Translations under genes and position numbers: made by a program
The notes under the pieces: model-generated
Told to the model about the DNA's origin: nothing
The model's database searches: none
Seen by the model: only the letters and a program-made list of their open reading frames with translations
Shown: positions 1-13,487 of the stretch, piece by piece
How the letters are laid out: every line of letters begins with the position of its first letter
Position numbering within the stretch: the stretch's first letter is position 1
Source: a bacterium
GTDB taxonomy: Bacteria > Patescibacteriota > Minisyncoccia > Phycocordibacterales > PALSA-1337
Assembly: GCA_025355565.1 (NCBI GenBank)
Contig: JANXZK010000020.1
Coordinates: 1-60,356, forward strand
DNA: 60,356 bases
Direction of reading: 5' to 3'

Positions 1-344
1 AGATTCTTGTACTCTCGAGTCGCCATACCTGTCCAAGCTCTACAAATCTCGTCCGTGAGAATGGCGAACTCCACACCTTCCTTCATGCCACCTCTTTCCC
101 ACTCGTCTGTAAGAGCTTTACGAATCTCAATAGCTTTCAACTGTACGATTTTCTCGTACACTTCACTGCCTTCATTTTTCAAACTTATCTTCAGATCTGA
201 CCAATATCTTCTAGGTATGGAGCTGCCAGTCAGTACTGCAATAACATCAACCACGGAGAAATACCATTTCTCCGATCTTTCGTCTCATTGTCGGCGAATC
301 TGCTGACCCTCGAATATAGCTAAATGCTTTTTCACGTCTGACAT
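1..344 (-). pseudogene. Bro-N domain (phage antirepressor-like) pseudogene, runs off the window
   Basis: Manual translation from ATG 344: MSDVKKHLAIFEGQQIRRQ*DERSEKWYFSVVDVIAVLT...PRRYWSDLK...VQLK-AIEIRKALTDEW. In-frame TGA at 285-287 where the family usually has W, plus an apparent internal deletion. Confidence 0.75.
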
Positions 345-399
345 ATCTCAATCTTCTCACATGAAAATGAAAAAACAATATTGACTAGGATAATTTCGT

Positions 400-471
400 G
401 TGCCCCTCGTGAGATGGAATTGGAATCAGATTGTGGCTAGTATTCGAGATTTTGAATATTTGAAACGTTAA
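400..471 (+). other. Left att site plus displaced 3' end of the recombinase gene (VPLVRWNWNQIVASIRDFEYLKR*)
   Basis: GTG CCC CTC GTG AGA TGG AAT TGG AAT CAG...CGT TAA is in frame with recombinase ...SQL-VP at 9646. Confidence 0.8.
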
Positions 472-479
472 TATTCCTA

Positions 480-1322
480 CTACACCGGAATAGCTCTGGC
501 CGGTACTATTTTCGCAATTAGAGGGCTGCAAACAATCAATATCGGGATGATCAAAGAATCTGGAGCGTAGTGGTACGAGAGATTTACGCCCAGGGCAGTG
601 ATTGAGATGATCAATATGATTATTCCTGTCCAGTTGATTCTTCCCGGATCGTAATCAGATACGAGATCATCCATATCCTTTTTTATATTTAGCAATCTTT
701 GCTTGAACTTCTGATTCTTACCTGGTAGTGGTATAAGCGAGATGATGTACCAAAAATTCACGGTAATAAATAGGAATGATGCTCCGATGAAAAACATCTC
801 GACCGGTGAGTCTGTAAGAGCATGATCTTGTGTAAAGAAAATATCGAGACTCGTAAATGCGAAATGAGATGAGGCAATACCGACAATGATGATCAGAAAC
901 CAGACATAAAGAGCAGCTTTCCATGAGTACCGAGAGTCGAATGAAAAAAGAATGTTAGCCAGGACAAACAGACTTGGGATTATTATGATTGCCGATAAGA
1001 TGGGACTTTGGATAATCGAAACGTGCTGGAAAATTATGTACACGAATATAACATTCCAGATGGCTAATATTTCTTTGTTAATTTTTAAGAGAAGTTTCTT
1101 TCGAAAAAACACTGCGTATATAATGCAGAAGATTACGGCAACGATAAACAGATGTCCGTACAGACTGTAGACGTCCTCACCTTTTCCAGGAATCAGACCT
1201 CCCAGAGCCAATACTGCTGATAAGATAATAACAACCAGATCGATCTTTTCGAACTTCTCCTGGATCAGCAAGAAAGCTTGTGCTAGTATACCCAAATAGA
1301 ATGGCAAAATACCGAGCAACAT
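480..1322 (-). CDS. Multi-pass membrane protein, unknown function
   Basis: 280 aa with many hydrophobic segments; starts 6 bp after the signal peptidase gene. Confidence 0.75.
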   Translation of the reverse strand: MLLGILPFYLGILAQAFLLIQEKFEKIDLVVIILSAVLALGGLIPGKGEDVYSLYGHLFIVAVIFCIIYAVFFRKKLLLKINKEILAIWNVIFVYIIFQHVSIIQSPILSAIIIIPSLFVLANILFSFDSRYSWKAALYVWFLIIIVGIASSHFAFTSLDIFFTQDHALTDSPVEMFFIGASFLFITVNFWYIISLIPLPGKNQKFKQRLLNIKKDMDDLVSDYDPGRINWTGIIILIISITALGVNLSYHYAPDSLIIPILIVCSPLIAKIVPARAIPV

Positions 1323-1328
1323 AGTAGA

Positions 1329-2063
1329 TTATTGTCCCAAGACCTTGCCAACGATGTCAGACAATCTAACAGGACCAAATGTTCTTGAGTCCAGGCTTGG
1401 AGCCGAATTATCGCTCATTACGAAGTATTCATCGCTTCCAAGATTTGCATTTGCATCGCCACTAATAGGATTGGCGACGTATTGATCTTGAAATAGAGAT
1501 CCATTGATAGAAAGCTGACCATCTTTGAGGGTAATTTTCTCTGAAGGCAATCCGATAACGCGCTTTATAAGATAAGCCTGGCTATTTGAGGATTTGAACA
1601 CTATTACATTATCCCTTTGAATGTTTTTGTCGAACTTTTCGATGAACAGATAAGCGCCCTGATTAAGATGTGGACTCATGCTTTGCCCTGACACGACAAA
1701 TGGTTCAATGACAAATAACCTGATTGGTACGGCAACCACGAGAGCAATTATCACCCCAACAACAATGTTAGCAACATACACCCCGAGCGATTTTCCCCAG
1801 GATGCTTGATAATATTTTTTGAAGAGTGAACTTAGAATCAAATACCCAGCTATCACTGATAAGATTTGAGCAATCACACCTAAACCTATCAAAGAAAAGA
1901 CTATGCCGGTTATACTGCTTCCAATACCGGATAACAGCACCACAAGCATCGATTTTCGATAGGAAGCATTAGAGATTTTGAAAAGCTTACTCAAGCCGAG
2001 GAGAATCGCAGAACTTATGAAAAAGCCTGCCACAGCTACTATTACAATAAGAAGAATCATCAT
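1329..2063 (-). CDS. lepB: Signal peptidase I (S26) with N-terminal multi-TM extension
   Basis: PFVVSGQSMSP (Ser), YLIKRVIGLP (Lys), DN...SLDSRTFGPV. Confidence 0.85.
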   Translation of the reverse strand: MMILLIVIVAVAGFFISSAILLGLSKLFKISNASYRKSMLVVLLSGIGSSITGIVFSLIGLGVIAQILSVIAGYLILSSLFKKYYQASWGKSLGVYVANIVVGVIIALVVAVPIRLFVIEPFVVSGQSMSPHLNQGAYLFIEKFDKNIQRDNVIVFKSSNSQAYLIKRVIGLPSEKITLKDGQLSINGSLFQDQYVANPISGDANANLGSDEYFVMSDNSAPSLDSRTFGPVRLSDIVGKVLGQ

Positions 2064-2232
2064 GATAATTATATAAGTATTAATAAATGCGCGAAATCTT
2101 AGTAATTACTTTACCACTAAATGTGCATCATAGCCACTATTGTTTCTGATGGCAGTCTATTCGCGACCGTGTACGGCCTGGCGCGCCACAAAAAATAGAC
2201 AGAAGGGTAGGAGATATTCACACAACCTAATA

Positions 2233-3165
2233 TCATTTGAAATTTATCCTCTGTTCAAAATCTTGGCATTTTTCTCTCGGGCAGGCAAATATATTTTTTG
2301 ACCGAAAATTGTCTATTGATTTTATCTCAGTAACTTCTAGTTCAACGAACATGTTTCTAATTGCTAAAACATGTAAATTATACAGACAATAATCAATAGA
2401 CTTTGAAAATGCGAGAACATTATATAAATCATTTCTTGGATTCTCAAAAATAATAGATGGTCTATATTTACTAATTGTCCTGGTTCCACCCTTCATAATT
2501 TTAAATTCATATCCTTCTGCATCAATTTTAATTATAGTTGGAGGTTCGAATCTTAGACTATCAATTGTATCAACATCGACATTTCCGCAATCTTTTTCTT
2601 GTATACTTGCTAAACCAGAATGAAAGTTATCCAAACTTTTCATACTCACATTATGAAGAATGTTATTGGATAGAGCTTTATTTATCGGTAACACATTTTG
2701 TAGATGAGCATCATTGATTAAGGATACCAAATCATTAAATATTCTTTCTTGCGGTTCAAATGCATAAATTTTTCCTTGAAATCCTGGGCTGCTTGCAATA
2801 TATCCAGTGAAATAACCCCAGTTAGATCCGATATCATAAAATACCCCATTAGAAAGAAATAAAATATCTAAAATGGCCATAACTTCTGGTTCATATCCAT
2901 CTCTTATAAATCTTTCAAAATACAAACTATGATATTGGGTATTTCTAGTATCAAAACTGCATAAATTATTATCAATCATAAAATAACCCTTTTGTTTAAT
3001 AAATGGTAATAATATTCTTGAAATTATTTTCGGTGCAGTTCGCCAACCATCAATTAATGTCGGATTTACAAGCGACTTGTTATCATACCCTAGTCTATAA
3101 AGTGAAGTAAGCAATGTACCTTTAGAGAAAGAGAATACTTTTCTGAATGGTAGTTTACGAATCAT
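2233..3165 (-). CDS. FkbM-family SAM-dependent methyltransferase
   Basis: FYDIGSNWG, YAFEP and IIKIDAEGYE motifs; ATGA overlap with the upstream metG stop. Confidence 0.9.
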   Translation of the reverse strand: MIRKLPFRKVFSFSKGTLLTSLYRLGYDNKSLVNPTLIDGWRTAPKIISRILLPFIKQKGYFMIDNNLCSFDTRNTQYHSLYFERFIRDGYEPEVMAILDILFLSNGVFYDIGSNWGYFTGYIASSPGFQGKIYAFEPQERIFNDLVSLINDAHLQNVLPINKALSNNILHNVSMKSLDNFHSGLASIQEKDCGNVDVDTIDSLRFEPPTIIKIDAEGYEFKIMKGGTRTISKYRPSIIFENPRNDLYNVLAFSKSIDYCLYNLHVLAIRNMFVELEVTEIKSIDNFRSKNIFACPREKCQDFEQRINFK

Positions 3166-4616
3166 ATATTAATCCTTGGGAATAAGCCGACTTCTGGTTT
3201 TTTGTTACGATCTAATGCCTCAATAATTTTTTTAGAAGTTTCGGGCATAAAACACACTAACGAGTTAGCGATCATGTAAAGCCTTAGTAACAAAAATCTA
3301 ATTAAACCCGCACCTTTCTCCATATCAATTTTAATTACTTTATACGGCTCTTCCTTAGAAATGTATTCATCAAGATTATTAATCTCTTTCCAAATAATAT
3401 CAATCGCCTTCTGAATATCAAAAGATTCAATTAACTCTGAAATGCCATCAAGATATTTCTTATTTTCGTCTTTTAGTGTAATACCATGTGTCTCTGATAG
3501 CTTAAGCACCCGACTCAACAGATTTCCAATACCATTGACCAAATTGGCATGATAAGCTTCGTCAAATGAACGTAGACTCATCGGAGAATCATCAAAACTA
3601 TTCACATGTCTTAATAAATAGTACCGTAGAGCGTCTGTGCCATATTTTTTATATAGGTCATAAGGATTAATTACATTTCCAATACTTTTGCTCATTTTAG
3701 TTCCACCTTCACCTGTTATGAAACCGTCTATAACTATAGTATCTGTGTTCGGTAAATCTGCTGCTAATAATATTGCCTGCCACATCGCAGATTGTTGTCG
3801 TAAATTATCTTTTCCTGCAAATTGAATTTTATAACCATCTTCCCAAAACTTTTTAAAGTTGCCATTTTTATCATTAGGCCAATCAAGTGTAGAGATATAA
3901 TTTGTCAGTGCATCAAACCAAACATACATGACATGATCATTGTCATTTGGGACAGGCACACCCCAGGGCATTTTCGTCTTCATTCGTGATATTGAAAAAT
4001 CCTTCAATCCCGATTGTACGAAGGAGGTAACCTCGCGTTTACGAAACTCAGGAATGATAAAGTTCTCTTTCGTATATATACTAAGAAGCTTTTCCTGGAA
4101 GGCTGAAAACTTAAAGAAATAGTTTTCTTCATTGATGAACTGTATATCAACCATTGGGTGTTCTGGGCATCTGCCATTTACTAAATCTGAATCATTTTTT
4201 TCTAATTCACATCCAACGCAATATTTGACACGATAGGTTGATTTATATATGTAACCGTTTATGTCACACCTCTTCCAAATTTCTTGACAAGCAGATATAT
4301 GTTTTTCATCCGTCGTTCTAATAAAATGTAGCGAGTTAATCAGATTTAAGATTTTTGATAAATCCTTGAATTCTTTCGCGTATATATCCACATATTCTTT
4401 TGGTGTTTTCCCAGACGTTATGGCCTTTTCATAAATTTTTTGGCCGTGTTCATCCGTTCCAGTATTAAAAAAGATATCCTTGCCAATCGAGGCATAGTAC
4501 CTCGCCATAACATCTGCTCTTATTATTTCCATGGCAAACCCAACATGAGGACTAGCATTTACATAAGGAAGCGTAGTGGTTATATAAATATTATTCTTTT
4601 GTTTTATGCTATTCAT
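3162..4616 (-). CDS. metG: Methionyl-tRNA synthetase (element-borne, canonical motifs)
   Basis: YITTTLPYVN..PHVG, TGTDEHGQK, CxxC..CPEH knuckle, YVWFDAL, KMSKS, NGIGNLLSR. Confidence 0.92.
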   Translation of the reverse strand: MNSIKQKNNIYITTTLPYVNASPHVGFAMEIIRADVMARYYASIGKDIFFNTGTDEHGQKIYEKAITSGKTPKEYVDIYAKEFKDLSKILNLINSLHFIRTTDEKHISACQEIWKRCDINGYIYKSTYRVKYCVGCELEKNDSDLVNGRCPEHPMVDIQFINEENYFFKFSAFQEKLLSIYTKENFIIPEFRKREVTSFVQSGLKDFSISRMKTKMPWGVPVPNDNDHVMYVWFDALTNYISTLDWPNDKNGNFKKFWEDGYKIQFAGKDNLRQQSAMWQAILLAADLPNTDTIVIDGFITGEGGTKMSKSIGNVINPYDLYKKYGTDALRYYLLRHVNSFDDSPMSLRSFDEAYHANLVNGIGNLLSRVLKLSETHGITLKDENKKYLDGISELIESFDIQKAIDIIWKEINNLDEYISKEEPYKVIKIDMEKGAGLIRFLLLRLYMIANSLVCFMPETSKKIIEALDRNKKPEVGLFPRINI

Positions 4617-4622
4617 AAATAT

Positions 4623-5945
4623 TTACTTATGGTTATTTTTATAAAATTCAGGTCTTAATGTCGATGTCATAAAGTATAATAATTCAATATTTGTATCATC
4701 AACAAAATCTAAAGAATTGAGAACATTGAGAAATTTATCAAACAACGAGATGGCTTCATAAAATTTATACATGGAAATATAACCGATAAACTTCCCTCGG
4801 TAATATGATGAGTCTATGTCACTGTCCATGCTCGCATGGAATAAATTATGTTTATCGACACAACTTGATATTAATGTACAAGATTTCATTGAGTTTTGCT
4901 TTATTATCTCTAAATCATCATAACTAAATTCGAAGTCGTCGAAAATATTATGTGATAACACGTAGAGTCGTATATCATCTGACGAATAATTGTGTGCTAA
5001 CTCATCAATACTAACTATATTACCTTTTGATTTCGAAATTTTTTCTCCGTTTTTATTTACAAATCCATGAACCATTATTTGATCGGGGAGTCTTTCTATT
5101 TTTGCCGCTAAAAGTATAAGCGGAAAATATATTGTATGAAATTTAAGAATATCCCTACCGATATTTTGAATAATAAAACAATCTTCCGACATCCATGTTT
5201 CGTAGAACAGTTTTTCATTACTAAAATAACCAACGGCATTTATATATGAGATAAGTGCTTCAAAAAATGCATACACAACATATTTATTATCTTTAAAAAA
5301 TGGAACGCCCAATTCGCCACTTTTAATTCTAGTTACATTGAAGTCATCAAAATATTTTAATCTATCAAGAGATTCAGTTTTATAAATATCGGGTATTATC
5401 TCTATCTGATTCCTTTCAAGTAACCCAAATAGTAAATCTATATGGGTAGCTATTTTCAAAAAGTAATTTTCTTCTGAAATAAATCGATAAGGTGTATTAT
5501 GTAAAGGACAGGAATTACTTTCTGGATTATTTCCAACAAATGATTCACACGACTGACAGTAATATGATTCCCATTTCTTAACATACAAAGCATTTTCATC
5601 AAAATTAGATATTATTTTATTTACCGCTCGAACATGGACATCGTTGCTAGTCCTGTAAAATATATCTACGGAAAGGCACAGTTTTTCCTTCAATTCAAGG
5701 AAAACATTACTAAAATGATCGCAGAATTCCCTGGTATCAATACCAGCTTTCTTGGCCTTTATTTCAATCTTAAAACTATTTTCGTCTGTTCCTGTTATAA
5801 AAAAAACTTCCTTTTTTAAATTTCTAAGGAATCTTGCTATCGTATCCGTTATTAATATTTCAAAACCAAATCCAATATGGGGTATTGAATTCACATACGG
5901 TAAGGATGTTGTTAGTATGTACTTTTTCTTGTTTAAATCTATCAT
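4623..5945 (-). CDS. Divergent MetRS-like class I aaRS paralog
   Basis: TTSLPYVN..PHIG, TGTDENS, CQSC..CPLH, YAFFEAL, GRDILKFH, KISKS; the C-terminal domain lacks the NxxGNLxxR motif. Confidence 0.88.
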   Translation of the reverse strand: MIDLNKKKYILTTSLPYVNSIPHIGFGFEILITDTIARFLRNLKKEVFFITGTDENSFKIEIKAKKAGIDTREFCDHFSNVFLELKEKLCLSVDIFYRTSNDVHVRAVNKIISNFDENALYVKKWESYYCQSCESFVGNNPESNSCPLHNTPYRFISEENYFLKIATHIDLLFGLLERNQIEIIPDIYKTESLDRLKYFDDFNVTRIKSGELGVPFFKDNKYVVYAFFEALISYINAVGYFSNEKLFYETWMSEDCFIIQNIGRDILKFHTIYFPLILLAAKIERLPDQIMVHGFVNKNGEKISKSKGNIVSIDELAHNYSSDDIRLYVLSHNIFDDFEFSYDDLEIIKQNSMKSCTLISSCVDKHNLFHASMDSDIDSSYYRGKFIGYISMYKFYEAISLFDKFLNVLNSLDFVDDTNIELLYFMTSTLRPEFYKNNHK

Positions 5946-5978
5946 AAATAGTTAACACATGCTACCATATTTATCTGT

Positions 5979-6809
5979 ATGAGTAAAATAATTACAGTAA
6001 ATAAATTTCTAAAACAGCAGGTTGACTATAAACGATTGAATAAACGTATTGTACTGATGTCTGGCAGTTTTGATTTATATCATCCTGGACATGTCGATAT
6101 ATTGAGAAAAGCAAAAAGATACGGTGATATTCTTGTGATTCTTCTAAATAGTGATTCATCAATAAGAAAATACAAAGGTAGAAATCGTCCTATTTTTAAT
6201 CAAAAAGAGAGGGCAAAAATTCTTGAATCAAATCAACACATAGACCATATAATCATATTTCCAGAGATTAATCCTAAGAAATATTTTTCTCTGATAAAGC
6301 CCGAGGTATTTTGTAATGGACTTGACTGGAGTAAGGATTTTATTGGTAGAGAAATTCTCGAACAAAACCGATGCAAACTAGTTTTCTTTAAGCGGGCAGC
6401 ATTATCAGCTAGTAATATCATAGAACGAATTATAAGAATATCTTCAATTAGAGAGAAGAATGGATTGATCTTTGATGAGCCTCTGTTTAATAGGCTAGCA
6501 TCTGATACCGAAGTATCTCAAAAACTTAAAGTTCTCTCTAAGGAAAAGGAAATCTACATTATCAGTCAAGATAATAAGATCTTTTGCCTTGGGTCTAATA
6601 AACAAATAAGAAAGAAAAATATTGTTGATACTCTATTATTTATGGCAAAAAGTAACGATTTTGTATTAAATCATAGTTATCTAATTTCTTCTAGGAGTGA
6701 CCTCATTGAGAGTGCTAAAGAAGTTAATGTTCACCCTATGTTTTTTGATATGCAGAATCCTGACTTTAAAAAATCTTTTTTAGCTTTTATCAATAAGATA
6801 ATGGTGTAG
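5979..6809 (+). CDS. Cytidylyl/adenylyltransferase (RfaE domain II-like) fused to a degenerate HAD/GmhB-like domain
   Basis: GSFDLYHPGH, LNSDSSIRKYKG.NRP, ERA motifs; the C-terminal LNHSYLISSRSDLIESAKEVNV resembles a GmhB tail. Confidence 0.85.
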   Translation: MSKIITVNKFLKQQVDYKRLNKRIVLMSGSFDLYHPGHVDILRKAKRYGDILVILLNSDSSIRKYKGRNRPIFNQKERAKILESNQHIDHIIIFPEINPKKYFSLIKPEVFCNGLDWSKDFIGREILEQNRCKLVFFKRAALSASNIIERIIRISSIREKNGLIFDEPLFNRLASDTEVSQKLKVLSKEKEIYIISQDNKIFCLGSNKQIRKKNIVDTLLFMAKSNDFVLNHSYLISSRSDLIESAKEVNVHPMFFDMQNPDFKKSFLAFINKIMV

Positions 6810-7034
6810 TGTTTCAAAAAGTTATCCACCTCCAATATTTGCATCCATTTCTAGCGGAGTTAGAATTACACCATATAAAGCCCATCGGGCAGTCCATATA
6901 CGTATGGATCGAGCGCTTGACGCTACTCTCCAAGTAGAGAGAAAAGAAACTTAACGAGGCATCATCTGTGACCTCACCTATGCGTATTTCGATATACGCT
7001 CTCTGTTCTTAATAAGTACACAATCATGCCGGAA

Positions 7035-7092
7035 GCCGTCCCAGCGGATGCTTTAGCGCCGCGGGACGGCGGGAGGGTTGACTTGATTATAG
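7035..7092 (+). promoter_or_regulatory. Putative double-strand origin (GC hairpin plus CTTGAT nick-like motif)
   Basis: GCCGTCCC...GGGACGGC hairpin at 7035-7070, then ACTTGATTATA at 7081, directly upstream of rep. Confidence 0.5.
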
Positions 7093-7134
7093 GCACACTT
7101 AAAGAGAACTCATTATCAATCTAATTCTACTTGG

Positions 7135-7959
7135 CTGGTAACTAAACTAACCCATTCCAAGCTCATCATCTCCGGCTCCACCATAGAGTCATACGAGTAC
7201 AAAGAAAAATCACTCGCATATGGGTTCTCAAACTCCAAGGGTAAAAGTCGAAAGAAAATAGTCGTCGTCAACGAAGAGACACGATTGAAGAAGATCGAAT
7301 CCAGGAAGCGTTCCATGCAACGCTCCAATTCCAAGCTACGCCGATTGGTCAACGCCAATGCTTGGAAGTGGACTAAATCTGACAGCATGCCATATCCACC
7401 TGTCTTTGCCACCTTCACATTCAAGGAAGACCTGAAGGATATCAAGACCGCCAATAGGATCTTCTCTCACTTCGTCAAACGTCTTAATTATGAGCTAGGC
7501 CATACAAAAAAGTCATTCCTGAAATACATAACCGTAATTGAATTTCAGGACTTTAGCCGTGATGGCGTCGTCCATTATCACAGCATCTTCTTTAACCTTG
7601 AATATATTCGCAAGGATATTTTGGCTGATATTTGGGGCCAAGGTTTTGTCCATATCCGAGCAATTGATCAGGTAAGCAACGCCGGAGCTTACGTATCAAA
7701 ATATCTGGTCAAGCACTTCGAGGATGATCGTCTCGACGGACAAAAGCGATACTTCTCATCTCGTGGATTGCACAAGCCCATTGAAATATTGGATCAATTC
7801 AAAGCTGATTCTATCTCATCTTTGATCCCTGCTCCATATCTGGCCAAGCAGAAAGAATTCATGAGCAAGTATCAGGGCAAGGTCGAATACAAGCAATATC
7901 TGTTGGATAGGACGCAATCGTTAAACGATGTCGTTCCGGATCTCGACCTACTCCTATGA
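7135..7959 (+). CDS. Rolling-circle replication initiator (HUH endonuclease); start uncertain (CTG 7135 or TTG 7285)
   Basis: FATFTF (motif I), EFQ..RDGVVHYH (motif II), YVSKYLVK (motif III); frame open from 7093. Confidence 0.85.
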   Translation: MVTKLTHSKLIISGSTIESYEYKEKSLAYGFSNSKGKSRKKIVVVNEETRLKKIESRKRSMQRSNSKLRRLVNANAWKWTKSDSMPYPPVFATFTFKEDLKDIKTANRIFSHFVKRLNYELGHTKKSFLKYITVIEFQDFSRDGVVHYHSIFFNLEYIRKDILADIWGQGFVHIRAIDQVSNAGAYVSKYLVKHFEDDRLDGQKRYFSSRGLHKPIEILDQFKADSISSLIPAPYLAKQKEFMSKYQGKVEYKQYLLDRTQSLNDVVPDLDLLL

Positions 7960-8141
7960 TCACCATCGAGGAGCTGAAAAAACTTGAGCCGGAATTAGCA
8001 GACAAAAGCGACAAAGAAGTTACTGTCATTCGTAATCTCCTCTACCAAGCTGCCAATCTTGCTCTTGAGAATTTCTTCGAGGACAAAAGCGGTTCCAAAA
8101 ATCCCGTTGGGTTATTGACTTCATCAGAGCAGGTGAAATAA
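7956..8141 (+). CDS. Small protein between rep and recombinase (candidate directionality factor or regulator)
   Basis: 61 aa; ATGA overlap with the rep stop and 16 bp before the recombinase. Confidence 0.65.
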   Translation: MITIEELKKLEPELADKSDKEVTVIRNLLYQAANLALENFFEDKSGSKNPVGLLTSSEQVK

Positions 8142-8157
8142 TTATCATGTAAAAAAT

Positions 8158-9846
8158 ATGAACAACACTGAAAAGAAAAATGGCATCATATATTGCAGGG
8201 TATCTTCGACGGAACAGGTTGAGGGCACTTCGCTCGAATCACAGCAGAAAATCTGTAGCGACTATGCCGTGCGCGAGAATATTAATGTACCCAAAATCTT
8301 CATTGAAAAGGGTGAATCAGCTAAAACAGCCGACCGCACTGAATTCATGTCAGCCATATCATTTTGTGGAGACAAGAAAAACAAAGTCGATTACTTCATT
8401 GTTTACAAGCTCGATAGATTTGCGAGAAACCAAGCAGATCACATTACAGTCAGGGAAACGCTTCGTAAGTACAAGGTGGAATTGAAATCCGTCACCGAAC
8501 CTATTGGCGACAGTCCTGTAGGCAAAATGATGGAAGGCATACTCTCCGCTTTCGCCGAATTCGATAACAATGTCAGAACAGAAAGAAGCGTAAACGGTAT
8601 GAAGGAACGCATCAAACAAGGCGTCTGGGTATGGGGTGCTCCCATTGGCTACCACAGGCTACAGAAGGGCGCTAACTTATCTCCGCATCCGACTTACGCG
8701 CCATACATCAAAATGATCTTCGAGGAATATTACAAGGGATCATACACTTACGATTCATTAGCCAAGTATATTACTGTCAGAGGATTCACGACAACTTCCG
8801 GAAAGCCGGCATTTCCGCAGCTCATTGAACGCATCATTAAGAATCCGATCTACTGCGGCATTATTAGAATTTGGGACATTGAAAGCGAAGGTAAATTCGA
8901 GCCCATCATCTCCCAAGATTTGTTCTACCAGTGCCAAGGAAGTGGCAGGAGGCACAAGAGTACGCCACGATCAGTTAAGAATCCAGAATTTCCGTTGAGA
9001 AAATTAACAGTATGCCAGTTTTGTGGCGAATCATTATTAACTGGTAGCAATGCAACCGGCCGCAAAGGAGTGAAATATCCTTACTACTATCACCAGAAAC
9101 AATCCTGTACTTACGCTAAATTCATTCCCAAAGAATCATTCGAGCAACTATTCGTGGAACATTTACACGAGATCAGCCCGAGCTTGAAATATGAGAATGC
9201 TTTCAAGACTATCGTTCTCGACATCTGGAAAAACAATTACAAAAGATTTGATGAAGAAAATAGACTGATCAACAGAGATGTAGACTCCTTAATTGACCAA
9301 CGTCAGCGTGTCTTTGACCTGCATCGTGAATGCACTTACTCCAACGAAGAATTTATCGATCAGAAGGAATTGATCAACAAGAAGATTGCTGGCAAAAAGT
9401 TACTTATTCACGACAAGAGCGTGGCCGAATTTAACATGGATGAAGCGCTTGAATATTGCTTCAGCTTCATCAGGAATTCAGCCGAATCTTGGCTCAAGAT
9501 GGCAGACAGACCAGAGAAGCGTCTCCGGTTCCAAAATTTGATCTTTGAGGAAAATTTGCCATTCACCGGAGAAAAATTTGGAACCACCAAACTAACGCCT
9601 ATATACAGCATATATCAGCAATTCTTAACAAATCCATCACAACTGGTGCCCCCACCAGGAATCTCGCCCTACGGGCGCTGTACAGGTTTCGCATTCTTCG
9701 TCCCTCGCAAGCTCGGGATTCAGAATATGCTCAACCTCTTCGATTTCTGGACGCGAGACGCGCAGGCGTCTCGCTTGGGGGCACAAAAATTCGCTTCGCT
9801 CATCTTTGTGCCCCCACCAGGAATCGAACCTGGATTTTCTCCTTAG
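8158..9846 (+). CDS. Large serine recombinase; in the integrated state reads through the att site into antisense tRNA
   Basis: IYCRVSS (catalytic Ser), VYKLDRFARN, NPIYCG, CQFC zinc ribbon, coiled coil; ends VPPPGIEPGFSP. Confidence 0.95.
   Translation: MNNTEKKNGIIYCRVSSTEQVEGTSLESQQKICSDYAVRENINVPKIFIEKGESAKTADRTEFMSAISFCGDKKNKVDYFIVYKLDRFARNQADHITVRETLRKYKVELKSVTEPIGDSPVGKMMEGILSAFAEFDNNVRTERSVNGMKERIKQGVWVWGAPIGYHRLQKGANLSPHPTYAPYIKMIFEEYYKGSYTYDSLAKYITVRGFTTTSGKPAFPQLIERIIKNPIYCGIIRIWDIESEGKFEPIISQDLFYQCQGSGRRHKSTPRSVKNPEFPLRKLTVCQFCGESLLTGSNATGRKGVKYPYYYHQKQSCTYAKFIPKESFEQLFVEHLHEISPSLKYENAFKTIVLDIWKNNYKRFDEENRLINRDVDSLIDQRQRVFDLHRECTYSNEEFIDQKELINKKIAGKKLLIHDKSVAEFNMDEALEYCFSFIRNSAESWLKMADRPEKRLRFQNLIFEENLPFTGEKFGTTKLTPIYSIYQQFLTNPSQLVPPPGISPYGRCTGFAFFVPRKLGIQNMLNLFDFWTRDAQASRLGAQKFASLIFVPPPGIEPGFSP
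9646..9825. repeat. 18-bp direct repeat of the tRNA-Arg 3' end enclosing an interrupted inverted copy and hairpins
   Basis: GTGCCCCCACCAGGAATC at 9646-9663 and 9808-9825; TTCGATTTCTGG..TGGGGGCACAAA between them. Confidence 0.85.
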
Positions 9847-9880
9847 GACGGAATTGTTCTATCCATTGAACTACAGGGGC
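9809..9880 (-). tRNA. tRNA-Arg(CCT)
   Basis: Cloverleaf GCCCCTG..GT CCT AA..CCAGG TTCGATT CCTGG TGGGGGCA; no encoded CCA. Confidence 0.92.
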
Positions 9881-9963
9881 TTTGGAAATGAATCTTAGGT
9901 TTTGGAACTATACCACATTATTGACTTTTGCGGCATGATGAGTTTTCTGCTAGACTGATTCCC

Positions 9964-10251
9964 ATGACCCCAGAAGAGAAGTCATTGCTCGAACGTACAT
10001 GCAAAATGGTAGAGGATAACAATGCTATCCTCCATTCTATCCGTCGCACGAATAGGCTCTCTGTCATCATACGAGTGACATATTGGGTGCTCATATTGGT
10101 CATCAGCTTTGGAGCATATTATTTCATTCAACCTTATCTCACTATGATGCTCGGTCTATATAGTCAAGCGACAGGAGGTATTCATAGTATCCAAGGTGGT
10201 ATGGACACAGTGCAAAGCGCAACGGATTCGATCAAAGAATTGTTGAGGTAG
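9964..10251 (+). CDS. Small single-TM hypothetical protein
   Basis: MTPEEK... with one TM helix; TG-C-TAGACT 7 nt before ATG 9964. Confidence 0.7.
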   Translation: MTPEEKSLLERTCKMVEDNNAILHSIRRTNRLSVIIRVTYWVLILVISFGAYYFIQPYLTMMLGLYSQATGGIHSIQGGMDTVQSATDSIKELLR

Positions 10252-10269
10252 TAAAGGACGAAGTATTTT

Positions 10270-10342
10270 GCCGAGGTAGCTCAGTTGGTAGAGCATTCCC
10301 CTGAAGAGGGAAGGGTCACCAGTTCGATCCTGGTCCTCGGCA
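10270..10342 (+). tRNA. tRNA-Phe(GAA)
   Basis: GCCGAGG..TTCCC CT GAA GA GGGAA..TTCGATC..CCTCGGCA. Confidence 0.95.
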
Positions 10343-10367
10343 CAAAGTAGATGAGCACCACTCATAT

Positions 10368-10396
10368 TTCCACTGATGGGAAAAGCATCAGTGGAA
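10368..10396. terminator. Hairpin after tRNA-Phe
   Basis: TTCCACTGATG-N7-CATCAGTGGAA. Confidence 0.55.
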
Positions 10397-10510
10397 GGGA
10401 AGTGGTTCTGGTTCCTCATGTCCCTGCAAACATGAGATCATCTATCACATCATCATGATGGTCACAAAGTATTAGATTCGTAAGAGTTATGTCGACGCAT
10501 AACTACATAC

Positions 10511-10600
10511 AGGCTAACAAATAGTAGATAAAATCCTGATGAATTTTTGATAAAAATTCGATAAAAAAAGAATCAAATTTCGATAAAATATAGATAAAAA
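10511..10600 (-). promoter_or_regulatory. 11-bp periodic TTTATC array plus extended -10 (copy 1)
   Basis: GATAAA-type units at 10527, 10538, 10549, 10560, 10571, 10582, 10593; minus strand TTTATCT-N6-TG-T-TAGCCT. Confidence 0.75.
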
Positions 10601-10642
10601 CTATTTTGGACGAAAAGCTAGTGAGGACTCGTCAGATAACTG

Positions 10643-11341
10643 TTATAAATCATAGGCATCTCGGAGATGTTCGGGGGTGTCGATGATGTAGCCACGACCT
10701 GGAATATTGGCAATAAGGCTCGGTTTTCGACCGACATTGAGCTTCTTTCGTAGGTTTCGGATATGCGCTTCGACGGTATTTGAGAACGGATTGCTGTCAG
10801 CTGTCCAGACATGTTCCATGATGAGCGCACGAGAAAGAACGGTTCCTGCATGCTTCACCATGTATTCGAGCAAGCAAAATTCCTTCCGGGTGATCTTCAA
10901 TCGACGGTTGCCTCTCATGACTATGCTCCTTTCCGAATCGATCTTTAGGTCATGTATCTGGAGCGTAGGGATATCCGCTTTCCTTGGTCTACGTGAGAGC
11001 AATTTGATCCGCGCCATCAGTTCCTGGAGAGCGAAAGGTTTGGTCATGTAGTCATCAGCTCCGGACTCGAAGGCGGCGACTTTGATATCGGGATCCTCGG
11101 TCACAGAGAGGAAAATGATCGGAGTAGTCTTGCCGAGCGCACGGATCTCTCGAGTCACCGCCAGGCCGTCTTTCTTTGGCATCGAATAGTCGAGAATGAT
11201 CATGTCATGTTCAAAGCTTCTAGCCATAAATGAGCCTTCATTGCCATCATGGGCGACCTCGACAGTGTGACCCGCAGACTTTAGACCACTGCAGAGCGCT
11301 TCAGATACAGAAATGTCATCTTCGATGATGAGTATCTTCAT
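10643..11341 (-). CDS. OmpR/PhoB-family response regulator (no adjacent kinase)
   Basis: IIEDD, ILDYSMP, GADDYMTKPF, winged helix VEAHIRNLRKKL..GRGY. Confidence 0.95.
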   Translation of the reverse strand: MKILIIEDDISVSEALCSGLKSAGHTVEVAHDGNEGSFMARSFEHDMIILDYSMPKKDGLAVTREIRALGKTTPIIFLSVTEDPDIKVAAFESGADDYMTKPFALQELMARIKLLSRRPRKADIPTLQIHDLKIDSERSIVMRGNRRLKITRKEFCLLEYMVKHAGTVLSRALIMEHVWTADSNPFSNTVEAHIRNLRKKLNVGRKPSLIANIPGRGYIIDTPEHLRDAYDL

Positions 11342-11457
11342 ATTGAATTTAAGTATATGCGCATGTATACAAAATGCAAGCCTCTATTGAGTTTGTCACA
11401 CTTTCTTGGTACTATATGGGGCACAATCTCTTATAAACTAAGTGTAATTTTTATACC

Positions 11458-11925
11458 ATGCCTACAGATGTACAATATCTAACCAGTGAAAAGCGCGCAG
11501 AGTTAGAAAAAGAATTAAATTTTCTCAAGAGCGAGAGGCGCAAAGAGGTCGCTGAACATTTAGAATATTCAAAAAAGCTTGGCGATCTTTCGGAGAACGC
11601 CGAATATCATCAGGCTCGCGAAGAGCAAGCTCTGGTCGAGGACCGTATCTCGAGATTGGAGACTCTATTGAAGAGCGCTGTCATGATCGGTGAAGGAGGG
11701 AAAGAGATGGTAACGATCGGTTCAACATTCCGATTGCAGAAAGACGGTGATAACAAGTCGTATATATATACCATTGTCGGATCAGAAGAGGCTGATATGA
11801 CTCATGGCAAGATATCGAACATTTCTCCACTCGGATCTGCTCTCCTTGGTCATAAAAAAGGTGAGAAAGTAAAAGTGGTGACTCCAAAAGGAACGATAGA
11901 GTACACGATAGTTATTATAAAATAA
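11458..11925 (+). CDS. greA: Transcription elongation factor GreA
   Basis: GDLSENAEY, SPLGSALLG. Confidence 0.97.
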   Translation: MPTDVQYLTSEKRAELEKELNFLKSERRKEVAEHLEYSKKLGDLSENAEYHQAREEQALVEDRISRLETLLKSAVMIGEGGKEMVTIGSTFRLQKDGDNKSYIYTIVGSEEADMTHGKISNISPLGSALLGHKKGEKVKVVTPKGTIEYTIVIIK

Positions 11926-11984
11926 AGTAAACAGTAAACCGAATATTGTGATTACCGATTACTGTATACTGATATCTAATCCAA

Positions 11985-13487
11985 ATGGCATCGATCGATG
12001 AACTTCGCACAACTAGATTGAATAAATTGGCATTACTAGAAAAGGCTGGAATGGATCCTTATCCAGCTAAAGTGCCACGAAGTTTTTGTCTCGAGGATGC
12101 AAAGAAGGATTTTGCGCAATTCGAAAAGTCGGCGGAGAAGGTATCTCTGTGTGGACGCATCATGGCCATCCGCGGACAAGGCGCTATCTTGTTCCTAGTG
12201 CTCGATGATGGAAAAGCGGCTTTTCAAGCAGTCATCAAGAAAGACGTTCTGGATGTAAGATTGTTCGAGTTGTTTACTGCGACTATCGATATCGGTGATA
12301 TCGTCAGTGTCACTGGGACATTCATGACTACTCAAAGAGGTGAACAGAGCATTTTGGTCACATCATGGACTATCGCTGTCAAGGCACTGTTGCCACTACC
12401 AGAAAAGTGGCACGGTCTCACTGATCCTGATGAGAAATTCCGCAAGAGATATCTAGATTTCATCATGGACAAAGCGGCGCGCGACATATTCTATAAAAAG
12501 GCCAAATTCTGGGAAGTTGTACGCACGATCATGAAAGAAGAGGGTTTTTTGGAAGTCGAGACACCGACTCTGGAGACGACGACGGGTGGCGCGGAAGCTA
12601 CTCCATTCAAGACGCATCACAATGATCATGACATGGACGTTTTCCTGCGTATTTCTGTCGGAGAATTGTGGCAAAAGAGGCTCATGGCTGGAGGTTTCCC
12701 AAAAACATTTGAGATCGGTCGTGTCTACAGGAATGAAGGTTCGAGCCCTGAACATATGCAGGAGTTCACAAATCTCGAATTTTACTGGTCATACGCGGAT
12801 TATAACGACGGTATGGAGTTTGTGACCAGGATGTATCGGCGCATCGCCACGGAAGTCTTTGGCACCACCAAGTTTACGTACAAGGAGCACACTTTCGACC
12901 TGGCAGATGAATGGGTGAAGATAGACTATGCTCTAGAGATCTTGAAGCAGACAAACATCGATATACACAAAGCTACTGATGAGGAGATCGTCGAAAGGTT
13001 GCGATCATTGAAAGTAGGGTATGATGGCTTGAACCGTGAACGTCTCGTTGATACGTTATGGAAATATTGTCGCAAGAACATCGCTGGTCCGGCATTCCTG
13101 ATCAATCATCCTGTACTCGTCGCACCGCTCGCAAAGAGGGTGAGTGAAGCTGGATCAAAAATAATGAATGAAAATGGTGGAAATGGATATAGTGGAGTTG
13201 TGCAGATGTTTCAACCGATCATTGCCGGCTCCGAGATCGGTCGTGGTTATTCGGAACTGAATGACCCGATAGATCAGCGCAAACGTTTTGAAGATCAGGC
13301 GAGATTATTGAAAGGCGGCGATACAGAAGCGATGATGGCAGATGATGAATTCGTAGAGATGCTCGAACACGGTATGCCACCTACTTGTGGTTATGGTTTT
13401 GGTGAGAGGCTATTTGCGGTGTTGACTAACAAGCCGCTACGCGAGGTTACGATGTTTCCACTGATGAAAGGTAAGGGGAAGGAGTGA
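11985..13487 (+). CDS. lysS: Lysine-tRNA ligase (class II)
   Basis: OB fold, GGAEATPF, YRNEG, HGMPPTCGYGFGERL. Confidence 0.97.
   Translation: MASIDELRTTRLNKLALLEKAGMDPYPAKVPRSFCLEDAKKDFAQFEKSAEKVSLCGRIMAIRGQGAILFLVLDDGKAAFQAVIKKDVLDVRLFELFTATIDIGDIVSVTGTFMTTQRGEQSILVTSWTIAVKALLPLPEKWHGLTDPDEKFRKRYLDFIMDKAARDIFYKKAKFWEVVRTIMKEEGFLEVETPTLETTTGGAEATPFKTHHNDHDMDVFLRISVGELWQKRLMAGGFPKTFEIGRVYRNEGSSPEHMQEFTNLEFYWSYADYNDGMEFVTRMYRRIATEVFGTTKFTYKEHTFDLADEWVKIDYALEILKQTNIDIHKATDEEIVERLRSLKVGYDGLNRERLVDTLWKYCRKNIAGPAFLINHPVLVAPLAKRVSEAGSKIMNENGGNGYSGVVQMFQPIIAGSEIGRGYSELNDPIDQRKRFEDQARLLKGGDTEAMMADDEFVEMLEHGMPPTCGYGFGERLFAVLTNKPLREVTMFPLMKGKGKE

Follow-up and report, generated by a model that had tools for sequence, protein, structure and literature searches.

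What becomes of an integrase whose gene contains the very attachment site at which the enzyme acts? The question is raised by a 60,356-nt stretch of a Patescibacteriota genome (the window; contig C3 of genome G000, 0.83 Mb in 27 contigs), in which a recombinase gene (int) runs without interruption from a mobile element into DNA derived from the 3' end of a tRNA gene. According to the original prediction, window 400-9652 is an integrative element whose serine integrase is split by the element's own attachment site (attP). Our best explanation of the locus, to which we assign a probability of roughly 0.85, is an integrated plasmid-like element that carries attP inside int and exchanges the C-terminal tail of its integrase upon integration. 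The anatomical part, i.e., an integrated element at 400-9652 with attP inside its own int, we consider very likely. The argument depends on the following parts of the window:

400..406, forward strand: attL core GTGCCCC, with the same letters as the attR core, at the contig joint 399->9646 with its 7 ambiguous letters
400..471, forward strand: orphaned native 3' end of int (P' arm), read as V-P-LVRWNWNQIVASIRDFEYLKR and then a stop, recognized by a hidden Markov model (HMM) of the tail and by its spacing
7956..8141, forward strand: p61, a 61-aa protein directly upstream of int (alignment, binding prediction)
8158..9645, forward strand: large serine integrase as far as the junction, residues 1-496 (domains, alignment, Foldseek)
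9646..9652, forward strand: attR core GTGCCCC (comparison of att pairs, contig joint)
9646..9663, forward strand: displaced 18-nt duplicate of the tRNA-Arg 3' end, i.e., the B' arm of the attB that was used (exact copy)
9664..9807, reverse strand: structured insert of ~144 nt as found at tRNA 3' ends, separate from the integrase element
9808..9880, reverse strand: intact tRNA-Arg(CCT), the ancestral target (ARAGORN; Rfam RF00005, 55.6 bits)

The int product shows the Pfam domains Resolvase (PF00239, 1.1e-31, residues 10-157) and Recombinase (PF07508, 4.6e-12), along with a zinc ribbon (PF13408) that reaches 2.3e-4 and 21.9 bits in the window protein, i.e., less than the cut-off of 25.3, and is precomputed on many homologues. 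Within an alignment of 61 sequences, residues S16, S17, Q20, D86, R87 and R90 as well as cysteines 259, 286, 289 and 317 are invariant, and R14 is nearly so. Foldseek places serine-integrase structures from cryo-electron microscopy first (9y66_A with 9e-20, Bxb1, PhiC31, LI), and 4kis is also among the matches.

In the integrated state the open reading frame (ORF) of int covers 8158-9846 and encodes 562 aa. At 9646-9652 the frame passes through GTGCCCC and enters a stretch of 18 nt that is identical to the 3' end of tRNA-Arg(CCT). The same core at 400-406 continues in frame as PLVRWNWNQIVASIRDFEYLKR and then a stop. This orphan tail has 22 residues; only circularisation would connect it in frame with 9645 and give an integrase of 519 aa. 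attP is thus placed inside the int frame, at conserved Leu-Val codons with about 22 codons left to the stop. In the chromosomal copy, the native C-terminal helix is therefore replaced by a peptide read from antisense tRNA; the circular copy would encode the full 519 aa. That is, the predicted split of the gene stands in so far as the junction lies inside the frame, but it amounts to a swap of the tail in which only the last 22 of 519 codons are separated.

To recognize native tails, we used an HMM of 14 native tails from database homologues, with the window left out, on the 31,558 six-frame peptides of the 0.83-Mb genome. The peptide at 394-468 ranks second (E=0.0015), and the matches after it have E-values of at least 0.15. 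The tail that was claimed to follow the core at 400-406 in frame is hence recovered. In a gapless alignment the native tails show six residues followed by the motif WN-x-[IL][VLI]-xx-[LI]-xx-[WF], and the peptide at the 400 site has exactly the spacing found in 15 native tails. Homologues without any WN-type tail had been named as an outcome that would speak against the split; native tails of this type are present in them at identical spacing.

The best match of the tail HMM in the whole genome (E=5e-7) is a second orphan native tail at C24:34982-35068 (reverse strand). Its core, GTGGACC, is repeated 819 bp away, where it forms part of the 3' end of tRNA-Ala(TGC) (C24:34173-34246); the interval holds a small helix-turn-helix-like ORF and a 146-aa ORF but no integrase. 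The locus resembles a decayed or miniature member of this family of elements.

The extent of the element was studied with Logan contigs of four sediment-metagenome runs (X1-X4), which we placed on window 1-12000. In X1, X2 and X4, position 399 is followed directly by 9646 in a contig that leaves out 9,246 bases, 7 letters being ambiguous at the joint, and the unitigs of these runs break at the same places, i.e., they end at 406 and start at 9646. This delimits a discrete element of 9,246 bp with the 7-bp core GTGCCCC at both edges, as had been claimed, and the predicted empty-site junction, proposed as a test that could refute the element, is present in public contigs of three runs. The contigs of X3 are continuous across both junctions and show no joint. 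Since the joint and contigs of the element are both found in the runs, occupied and empty sites coexist; in X1, the depth is 7 for the joint and 14.6-19.9 for the element contigs. Coverage holes are observed in X1, X2 and X4 at 801-2000 and 8801-9600. The element at 400-9652 is probably still mobile. By itself, the 7-mer GTGCCCC is weak evidence for a boundary; it occurs 8 times in the window (2.7 expected, shuffle maximum 7). Synteny was inspected for 10 tRNA-Arg(CCT) loci, where nothing beyond the tRNA 3' end matches window 1-7000; the region is therefore variable and provides no empty site from synteny. The small free-form contigs G005:C27 (4,701 bp) and L045-L048 show no terminal repeats.

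The int family comprises 2,139 proteins at E<=1e-40 among 6,404 candidates, and the source names of the homologues point to Patescibacteria, i.e., the candidate phyla radiation (CPR). We sorted the 120 best homologues by their C-termini, using a regular expression plus calls by eye, into three classes:

91/120: antisense-tRNA peptide (...LV-TLRGIEPRF, ...TLQRIEL), 87 by regular expression and 4 by eye
16/120: native tail, 15 by regular expression and 1 by eye
13/120: truncated or other

The frame of the 91 integrated-form homologues is uninterrupted to the junction, at identities of 53-92%. Closer inspection of loci covered genomes as well as 13 of 17 metagenome loci, with L049, L051 and L052 (matches without the C-terminus) and L055 (27% identical) excluded. 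Close int homologues (54-69% identity) in the p61-int arrangement are present in G017, G030, G005, G055 and G022, and partially in G035 and G031; six of these seven genomes also have a Rep homologue detectable by BLAST, while G022 has none. Relatives show the predicted architecture, i.e., int running on into the antisense of a tRNA, both at tRNA-Glu genes and at tRNA-Arg(CCT). In G017, G030 and G022 the frame enters the antisense 3' end of an intact tRNA-Glu at the same Leu-Val codons. In L053 an integrase C-terminus 92% identical to that of the window directly adjoins an intact tRNA-Arg(CCT), followed by tRNA-Phe, with no 144-nt insert.

With the tail HMM, orphan tails on the int strand were located upstream of int in G017, G022, G055, L039, L041, L043, L044 and L054. 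Nine attL/attR pairs share a block of 7-12 nt that always includes GTGA or GTGC, and the respective elements, with the orphan tail upstream on the same strand, are 3,358-10,989 bp long. The core co-varies with the target, i.e., GTGACCC for tRNA-Glu(CTC), GTAGCCC for Glu(TTC) and GTGCCCC for Arg(CCT), with other variants in free forms. The shared block is minimal in L054 (TTG+GTGA), and five pairs lack identity to its left. From this shrinkage and the missing identity we infer a crossover within the first four bases of the core (positions 1-4), corresponding to positions 72-74 of the tRNA. At its end the P arm reads (C/T)TGGTG, i.e., discriminator plus CCA in antisense. Given this mimicry, the tRNA next to attR gains an encoded CCA, which the native tRNA genes are without: the attL flanks read CA-C-A... 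in the window, G017, G022 and G055. Recombination at the tRNA 3' end leaves the tRNA body undisrupted.

These data also bear on the position of the left end. If the match at 400-406 were due to chance, the element could start near 6861, where DNA homology to two relatives (G017, G030) begins and the GC content shifts; the 8 occurrences of GTGCCCC in the window are compatible with such a chance match. The contig joint, which falls exactly on 399 and 9646, and the specific match of the tail HMM refute this left end. Furthermore, a 32-nt homology at 2158-2189 extends the element leftward, and the orphan tails of relatives are found 3.4-11 kb upstream with variable cargo between. We thus regard a left end near 6861 as practically negligible. 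Left ends at 6861 or, in G017, at 13711, i.e., where DNA homology among relatives stops, were both rejected as boundaries because of the orphan tails further upstream and the variable cargo between.

The integration target deserves a separate look. The 18-mer occurs twice in the window (0.02 occurrences expected), and none of 100 shuffles reaches two. The claim that the ORF crosses into tRNA-derived sequence is supported by the exactness of this copy but needs correction, since the copy is a displaced duplicate behind a separate insert of ~144 nt. The empty-site contig runs on into this insert, which identifies the displaced duplicate as the attB that was used. A homologous segment of ~145 nt is found beside tRNA-Asn(GTT) at C24:78300-78450, flanked by an 18-nt duplicate of its own tRNA 3' end. 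Within the genus, 41 of 93 genomes have matches to the insert, some of them arranged in tandem ~160 nt apart. In 5 of 11 loci examined (L057-L067) the terminal 16-mer of the tRNA is duplicated 145-174 nt away; tRNAs with such a duplicated 16-mer are Arg-GCG, Gly-CCC, Leu-GAG, Lys-CTT, Leu-TAG and Pro-TGG. As each tRNA has its own specific duplication, a fixed att core cannot account for the insert. We also rejected the insert as a remnant of a second integrase element, as homologues with tRNA-specific duplications occur elsewhere without an integrase. The RNA of the insert folds strongly (z = -6.4), and the two insert copies of G000 share, in part, a short ORF that is read on the strand of the tRNA and has a CxxC motif. 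In the Rfam search only the two tRNAs passed, with nothing for the 144-nt insert or the GC-rich segments (window remnant). Islander-type islands have an intact tRNA gene at one end, restored by island sequence, and a displaced fragment of the gene at the other. The element differs from them: its ends share 7 bp only, the crossover is at the extreme 3' end and no tRNA fragment is displaced by the element. The 18-nt duplicate belongs to the separate insert and not to an Islander-type displacement.

Is the exchanged tail more than a by-product of the position of attP? We inspected an AlphaFold2 model of the free-form homologue P0031, for which the mean predicted local distance difference test score (pLDDT) is 84.9. 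Here, Leu-Val 496-497 is situated inside helix 493-502, and the WN motif begins helix 504-528 with pLDDT values of 90, 79 and then 44. These tail helices come after a hairpin-plus-helix module; the long helices at 342-389 and 395-415 form the inserted coiled coil. In terms of this model, integration would cut the first of the tail helices and remove the second, leaving a Pro/Gly-rich peptide instead. Model and alignment suggest that the native tail is a protein feature, beyond a mere DNA site.

The overlap of attP and int could nevertheless be incidental, i.e., a result of genome compaction and of tRNA mimicry by the P arm, with a dispensable tail, two enzyme forms that act alike and a direction set by p61 or by expression level. 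What argues for this, and thus against a function of the exchange, is that native tails vary from 20 to 59 residues and are conserved in the first ~17 only, with the window tail among the shortest, and that integrated-form tails are arbitrary in sequence and length (~11 aa in most, 67 aa in the window). Furthermore, the last 28 residues of the SPbeta integrase are disordered according to the accessible excerpt of PMC11722253. On the other hand, the spacing of the WN motif is fixed among proteins 53-68% identical to the window integrase, the model confidently extends the preceding fold into the tail as a helix, and its hydrophobic residues are preserved through non-synonymous codon changes (ATT, CTT, ATA, GTA, TTA). 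The same excerpt on SPbeta reports that F532 near the C-terminus matters for direction. Given both sides, an incidental overlap retains a substantial minority chance.

The tail might also act by making the protein short-lived. In this case the native tail would be a degradation or instability signal such that the free form is short-lived and the integrated form stable, or the reverse. The principle is known, by the accessible part of PMC8092301, for repressors whose gene holds attP, and AA or a similar pair is found at the end of a few native tails. Such an end in AA is restricted to 2 of 15 native tails, while the window tail ends in KR, and the conserved part is the proximal helix rather than the extreme C-terminus. 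An instability signal is therefore quite improbable in our view, and an ssrA-like tag as a general explanation of native tails was dropped given just 2 of 15 ends in AA.

We return to the exchange of the tail as a functional event, for which the second candidate player is p61. It is present in 11 of 13 elements (int in 13/13, HUH Rep in 6/13), always right upstream of int, and has no Pfam or PHROG family; its Atlas matches are unnamed CPR clusters only, with values of 0.85 and 0.77 that are below the guide value of 0.9. For p61 with Int 165-496 the predicted binding score is 0.73 (best control 0.00), with at least 81% of the contacts in agreement between runs and a partner pLDDT of at least 70. 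The predicted contacts cover Int 343-357, 430-461 and 480-482, i.e., the coiled-coil base plus the helices that follow. By this prediction, p61 is a candidate recombination directionality factor or integrase partner.

Our proposal for the working of the element is as follows. The full-length 519-aa form expressed from the circle would perform the attP x attB integration. Integration at the tRNA 3' end parts int from its last 22 codons and leaves them at attL, 9.2 kb upstream. With p61 acting like a directionality factor at the coiled-coil base, the tail-less form would carry out or permit attL x attR excision. Each state would yield the enzyme form suited to leaving that state. Being near the predicted p61 site, the native tail may modulate the effect of p61, such that circle and chromosome forms favour opposite reactions. 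The assignment of integration to the full-length form and of excision to the tail-less form with p61 follows the structural models and is put forward as a tentative possibility. A wider version is more doubtful still. It sees a state-sensing recombinase, i.e., the gene on the circle encodes an integration-proficient and the chromosomal gene an excision-proficient enzyme. Here, the lost helix would gate the access of p61, and the direction would be set by the DNA topology of int in place of a directionality factor under regulated expression. The family would then also be the first large group of serine integrases at tRNA 3' ends.

Alternatively, integration may simply inactivate the enzyme as in SSV1, such that the chromosomal integrase is non-functional and the element is locked unless a co-resident circle supplies the full-length enzyme. 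In the model, integration removes one structured helix and cuts another; no circle joint is among the joints listed (contigs only), and int-less remnants exist, e.g., the C24 orphan tail 819 bp from tRNA-Ala. All three fit an inactivated integrase. We still rate it as unlikely, given that 91 of 120 homologues are integrated with frames open to the junction at 53-92% identity, which is hard to maintain without selection, that empty and occupied sites are found in the same samples, and that the catalytic residues are invariant.

Several further points weigh against a mobile element with a functional tail exchange. The shorter side of the joint 399->9646 has 23 letters, was called at 90% likeness and belongs to a class flagged by the tool; a k=31 unitig across the shared 7-nt core must, however, give exactly 23. 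The empty site could stem from a strain that never held the element instead of from excision. All four runs come from one study, possibly the assembly's own source, and X2 equals X4 in its numbers. The circle junction (9645 back to 407) is absent from the joints listed, which were called on contigs only; contigs drop rare forms, so this is no evidence of absence. The attB used here is tRNA-like for 18 nt only. The predicted imperfect inverted repeat of attP (11/16) is present, counted as 14/20 with its centre after GTG, but is weak in most relatives (~5/20, i.e., chance level). Summed over 13 sites, the dyad peaks after GTG (91) with a nearly equal value at +8 (90), the G005 site being misaligned by one base in this sum, and the palindromic GC originally proposed as centre would give no polarity. 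Concerning p61, the binding mark is attained by 58 of the 80 solved complexes and by 2 of the 110 mismatched pairs; the p61 prediction used our own alignments, and its score may partly echo solved integrase-RDF (recombination directionality factor) complexes. Finally, p61 and int appear to share a transcript whichever state the element is in, which sets p61 apart from most directionality factors.

The remainder of the element was predicted to be minimal, with an HUH Rep, the 61-aa protein and the integrase only. This proved wrong, as six cargo genes were found. Together with the replication (Rep) module, the left part of the element reads:

480..1322, reverse strand: cargo, multi-pass membrane protein of 280 aa (no Pfam match; no other copy in the genome)
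1329..2063, reverse strand: cargo, signal peptidase I (LepB) paralogue (PF10502, 2e-34)
2130..2189, forward strand: remnant of a GC-rich structured segment (32-nt match at 2158-2189, 94-96% to G017 and G030)
2233..3165, reverse strand: cargo, FkbM-family methyltransferase (PF05050, 2.9e-12)
3162..4616, reverse strand: cargo, methionyl-tRNA synthetase (MetRS) paralogue (PF09334, 2.7e-88)
4623..5945, reverse strand: cargo, divergent MetRS-like gene (PF09334, 6.5e-64; 35% identical to the first)
5979..6809, forward strand: cargo, cytidylyltransferase-like protein (PF01467, 1.4e-17)
6861..7284, forward strand: conserved non-coding Rep leader (homology to G017 and G030 begins at 6861)
7285..7959, forward strand: HUH rolling-circle replication initiator of 224 aa (PF23343, 3.2e-18; phrog_3584, phrog_3419)

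A second LepB (37% identity) is encoded on contig C21 and a second MetRS (54% identity) on C14; these copies are presumably the housekeeping ones. Most of the cargo falls in a low-GC island at 2190-6860 (~30% GC vs 40-46% around) that replaces ~256 bp of the relatives. The remnant at 2130-2189 marks the left edge of this island, while the respective segment of the relatives sits between cargo and Rep module. In G017 this GC-rich segment spans ~270 nt (L023:13711-13976, with an equivalent in L024 of G030) and shows several hairpins and GGCGCGCCAC repeats. The segment is conserved between both elements, is located upstream of a small reverse-strand ORF and may be a single-strand origin or an RNA.

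The Rep protein matches phrog_3419 ("rolling circle DNA replication initiation") with 1.3e-16. We read HYH and YVSKY in its translation, where the assignment to motifs is our own reading. Upstream of rep, a GC hairpin (7035-7070) is followed by a 24-nt block (7086-7109) that is invariant in 4/4 sequences; by position and conservation, both are a candidate double-strand origin or promoter, and no nick site was identified in the Rep leader. An HUH Rep as part of the core, as predicted, is present here but shared by only 6 of 13 related elements, such that p61 and int form the constant module. Other elements carry replication or transfer modules with AAA_25/DnaB-like proteins, primase, coupling protein and UvrD, as well as defence genes (a methylase with a MutH-like nuclease, AIPR, GmrSD) and metabolic genes. 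The predicted absence of capsid and conjugation genes was confirmed: no capsid, packaging, lysis or conjugation families were found with Pfam among all nine element proteins or with PHROG among four of them, and no capsid, packaging or lysis families among 20 cargo proteins of relatives. A viral origin was also rejected, as none of six pattern matches in IMG/VR is a relative of the element.

Some observations concern the flanks. To the left, window 3-254 (reverse strand) holds a gene of phrog_15286 (function unknown) with paralogues at or near the ends of contigs C8, C7, C1 and C2; a further paralogue is located beside another serine recombinase on C17. The left-flank gene may itself be mobile DNA, which could explain the contig end 400 nt from attL. 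To the right, several joints in the contigs connect the region of tRNA-Arg with the beginning of tRNA-Phe and omit 265-414 nt (window 9873-10288). They probably represent related organisms in the samples without the small ORF between the two tRNAs. An AT-rich intergenic repeat of ~80 nt with internal GATAAAAA-like units (window 10524-10606) has copies at C3:35654-35727, twice on C10, on C23 and in genome G034, with identities of 88-92% within G000 and 86-89% in G034.

Serine integrases are workhorses of genome engineering, and the control of their direction is an active structural question. The int family would offer two native isoforms, i.e., with free and integrated C-terminus, and a 61-aa candidate directionality factor. 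Its co-varying 7-bp core, matched to the tRNA, suggests natural retargeting, which is of interest to integrase engineers. For annotation it matters that 91 of the 120 closest database proteins end in a C-terminus derived from antisense tRNA. These elements, which carry defence systems and paralogues of core genes (MetRS, LepB) from one very small CPR genome to another, would escape island finders in which tRNA targets are paired with tyrosine integrases only. The accessible excerpts of PMC8092301 and PMC5704250 describe serine integrases as inserting within protein genes with cores of 5-8 bp. In the part of PMC4383910 at hand, tRNA genes are said not to be serine-integrase targets, a working rule that the tRNA targeting found here contradicts, and int genes spanning attP are known for the tyrosine integrases of Mx8 and SSV. 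Within the literature searched, represented partly by excerpts, we found neither a serine integrase with attP in its own gene nor a CPR family of serine integrases directed at tRNA genes; such cases may be contained in the TIGER/Islander tables.

Compared to known systems, the element is closest in its enzyme to the large serine integrases (PhiC31, Bxb1, SPbeta, LI/A118), which have a common domain order of catalytic domain, recombinase domain and zinc ribbon with coiled coil. The window integrase matches their fold and likewise uses a short core, here of 7 bp. As far as the excerpt of PMC11722253 goes, the SPbeta directionality factor sits on DBD2 and inter-hinge segments, and p61 is predicted at a like place. 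What differs from other large serine integrases is the target, i.e., the 3' end of a tRNA gene, and an extra C-terminal module of a hairpin plus helices. Integration-dependent immunity of mycobacteriophages shares the principle, given the available part of PMC8092301: attP is located in a gene, and integration truncates the product and alters its properties. By that same part of the source, a repressor is split there and loses a degradation tag, whereas here a recombinase is split and tag-like C-termini are rare (2/15).

Integrative rolling-circle plasmids and single-stranded DNA elements also combine an HUH Rep (PF23343, phrog_3419) with an adjacent integration module. In contrast to rolling-circle plasmids, Rep is found in 6 of 13 related elements only, the others having AAA_25/DnaB-like proteins or primase and some a coupling protein; rolling-circle replication is therefore not the defining trait of the family. 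In SSV1-type systems, the integrase gene is cut into two large parts and inactivated. As in our element, the gene of these archaeal integrases lies across attP, and the target is a tRNA gene (Islander 2014, in the portion available). They differ in being tyrosine recombinases, and only the last 22 codons are exchanged here. The myxophage Mx8 reportedly inserts at a tRNA gene. Its IntP/IntX system has attP within int too, and the accessible text of PMC6070905 describes that integration creates a new 3' end of int, by which the behaviour of the enzyme is changed and not abolished. Mx8 uses a tyrosine recombinase with unrelated chemistry and att architecture, and it is one phage, while the serine integrases presented here form a family of more than 2,000 members.

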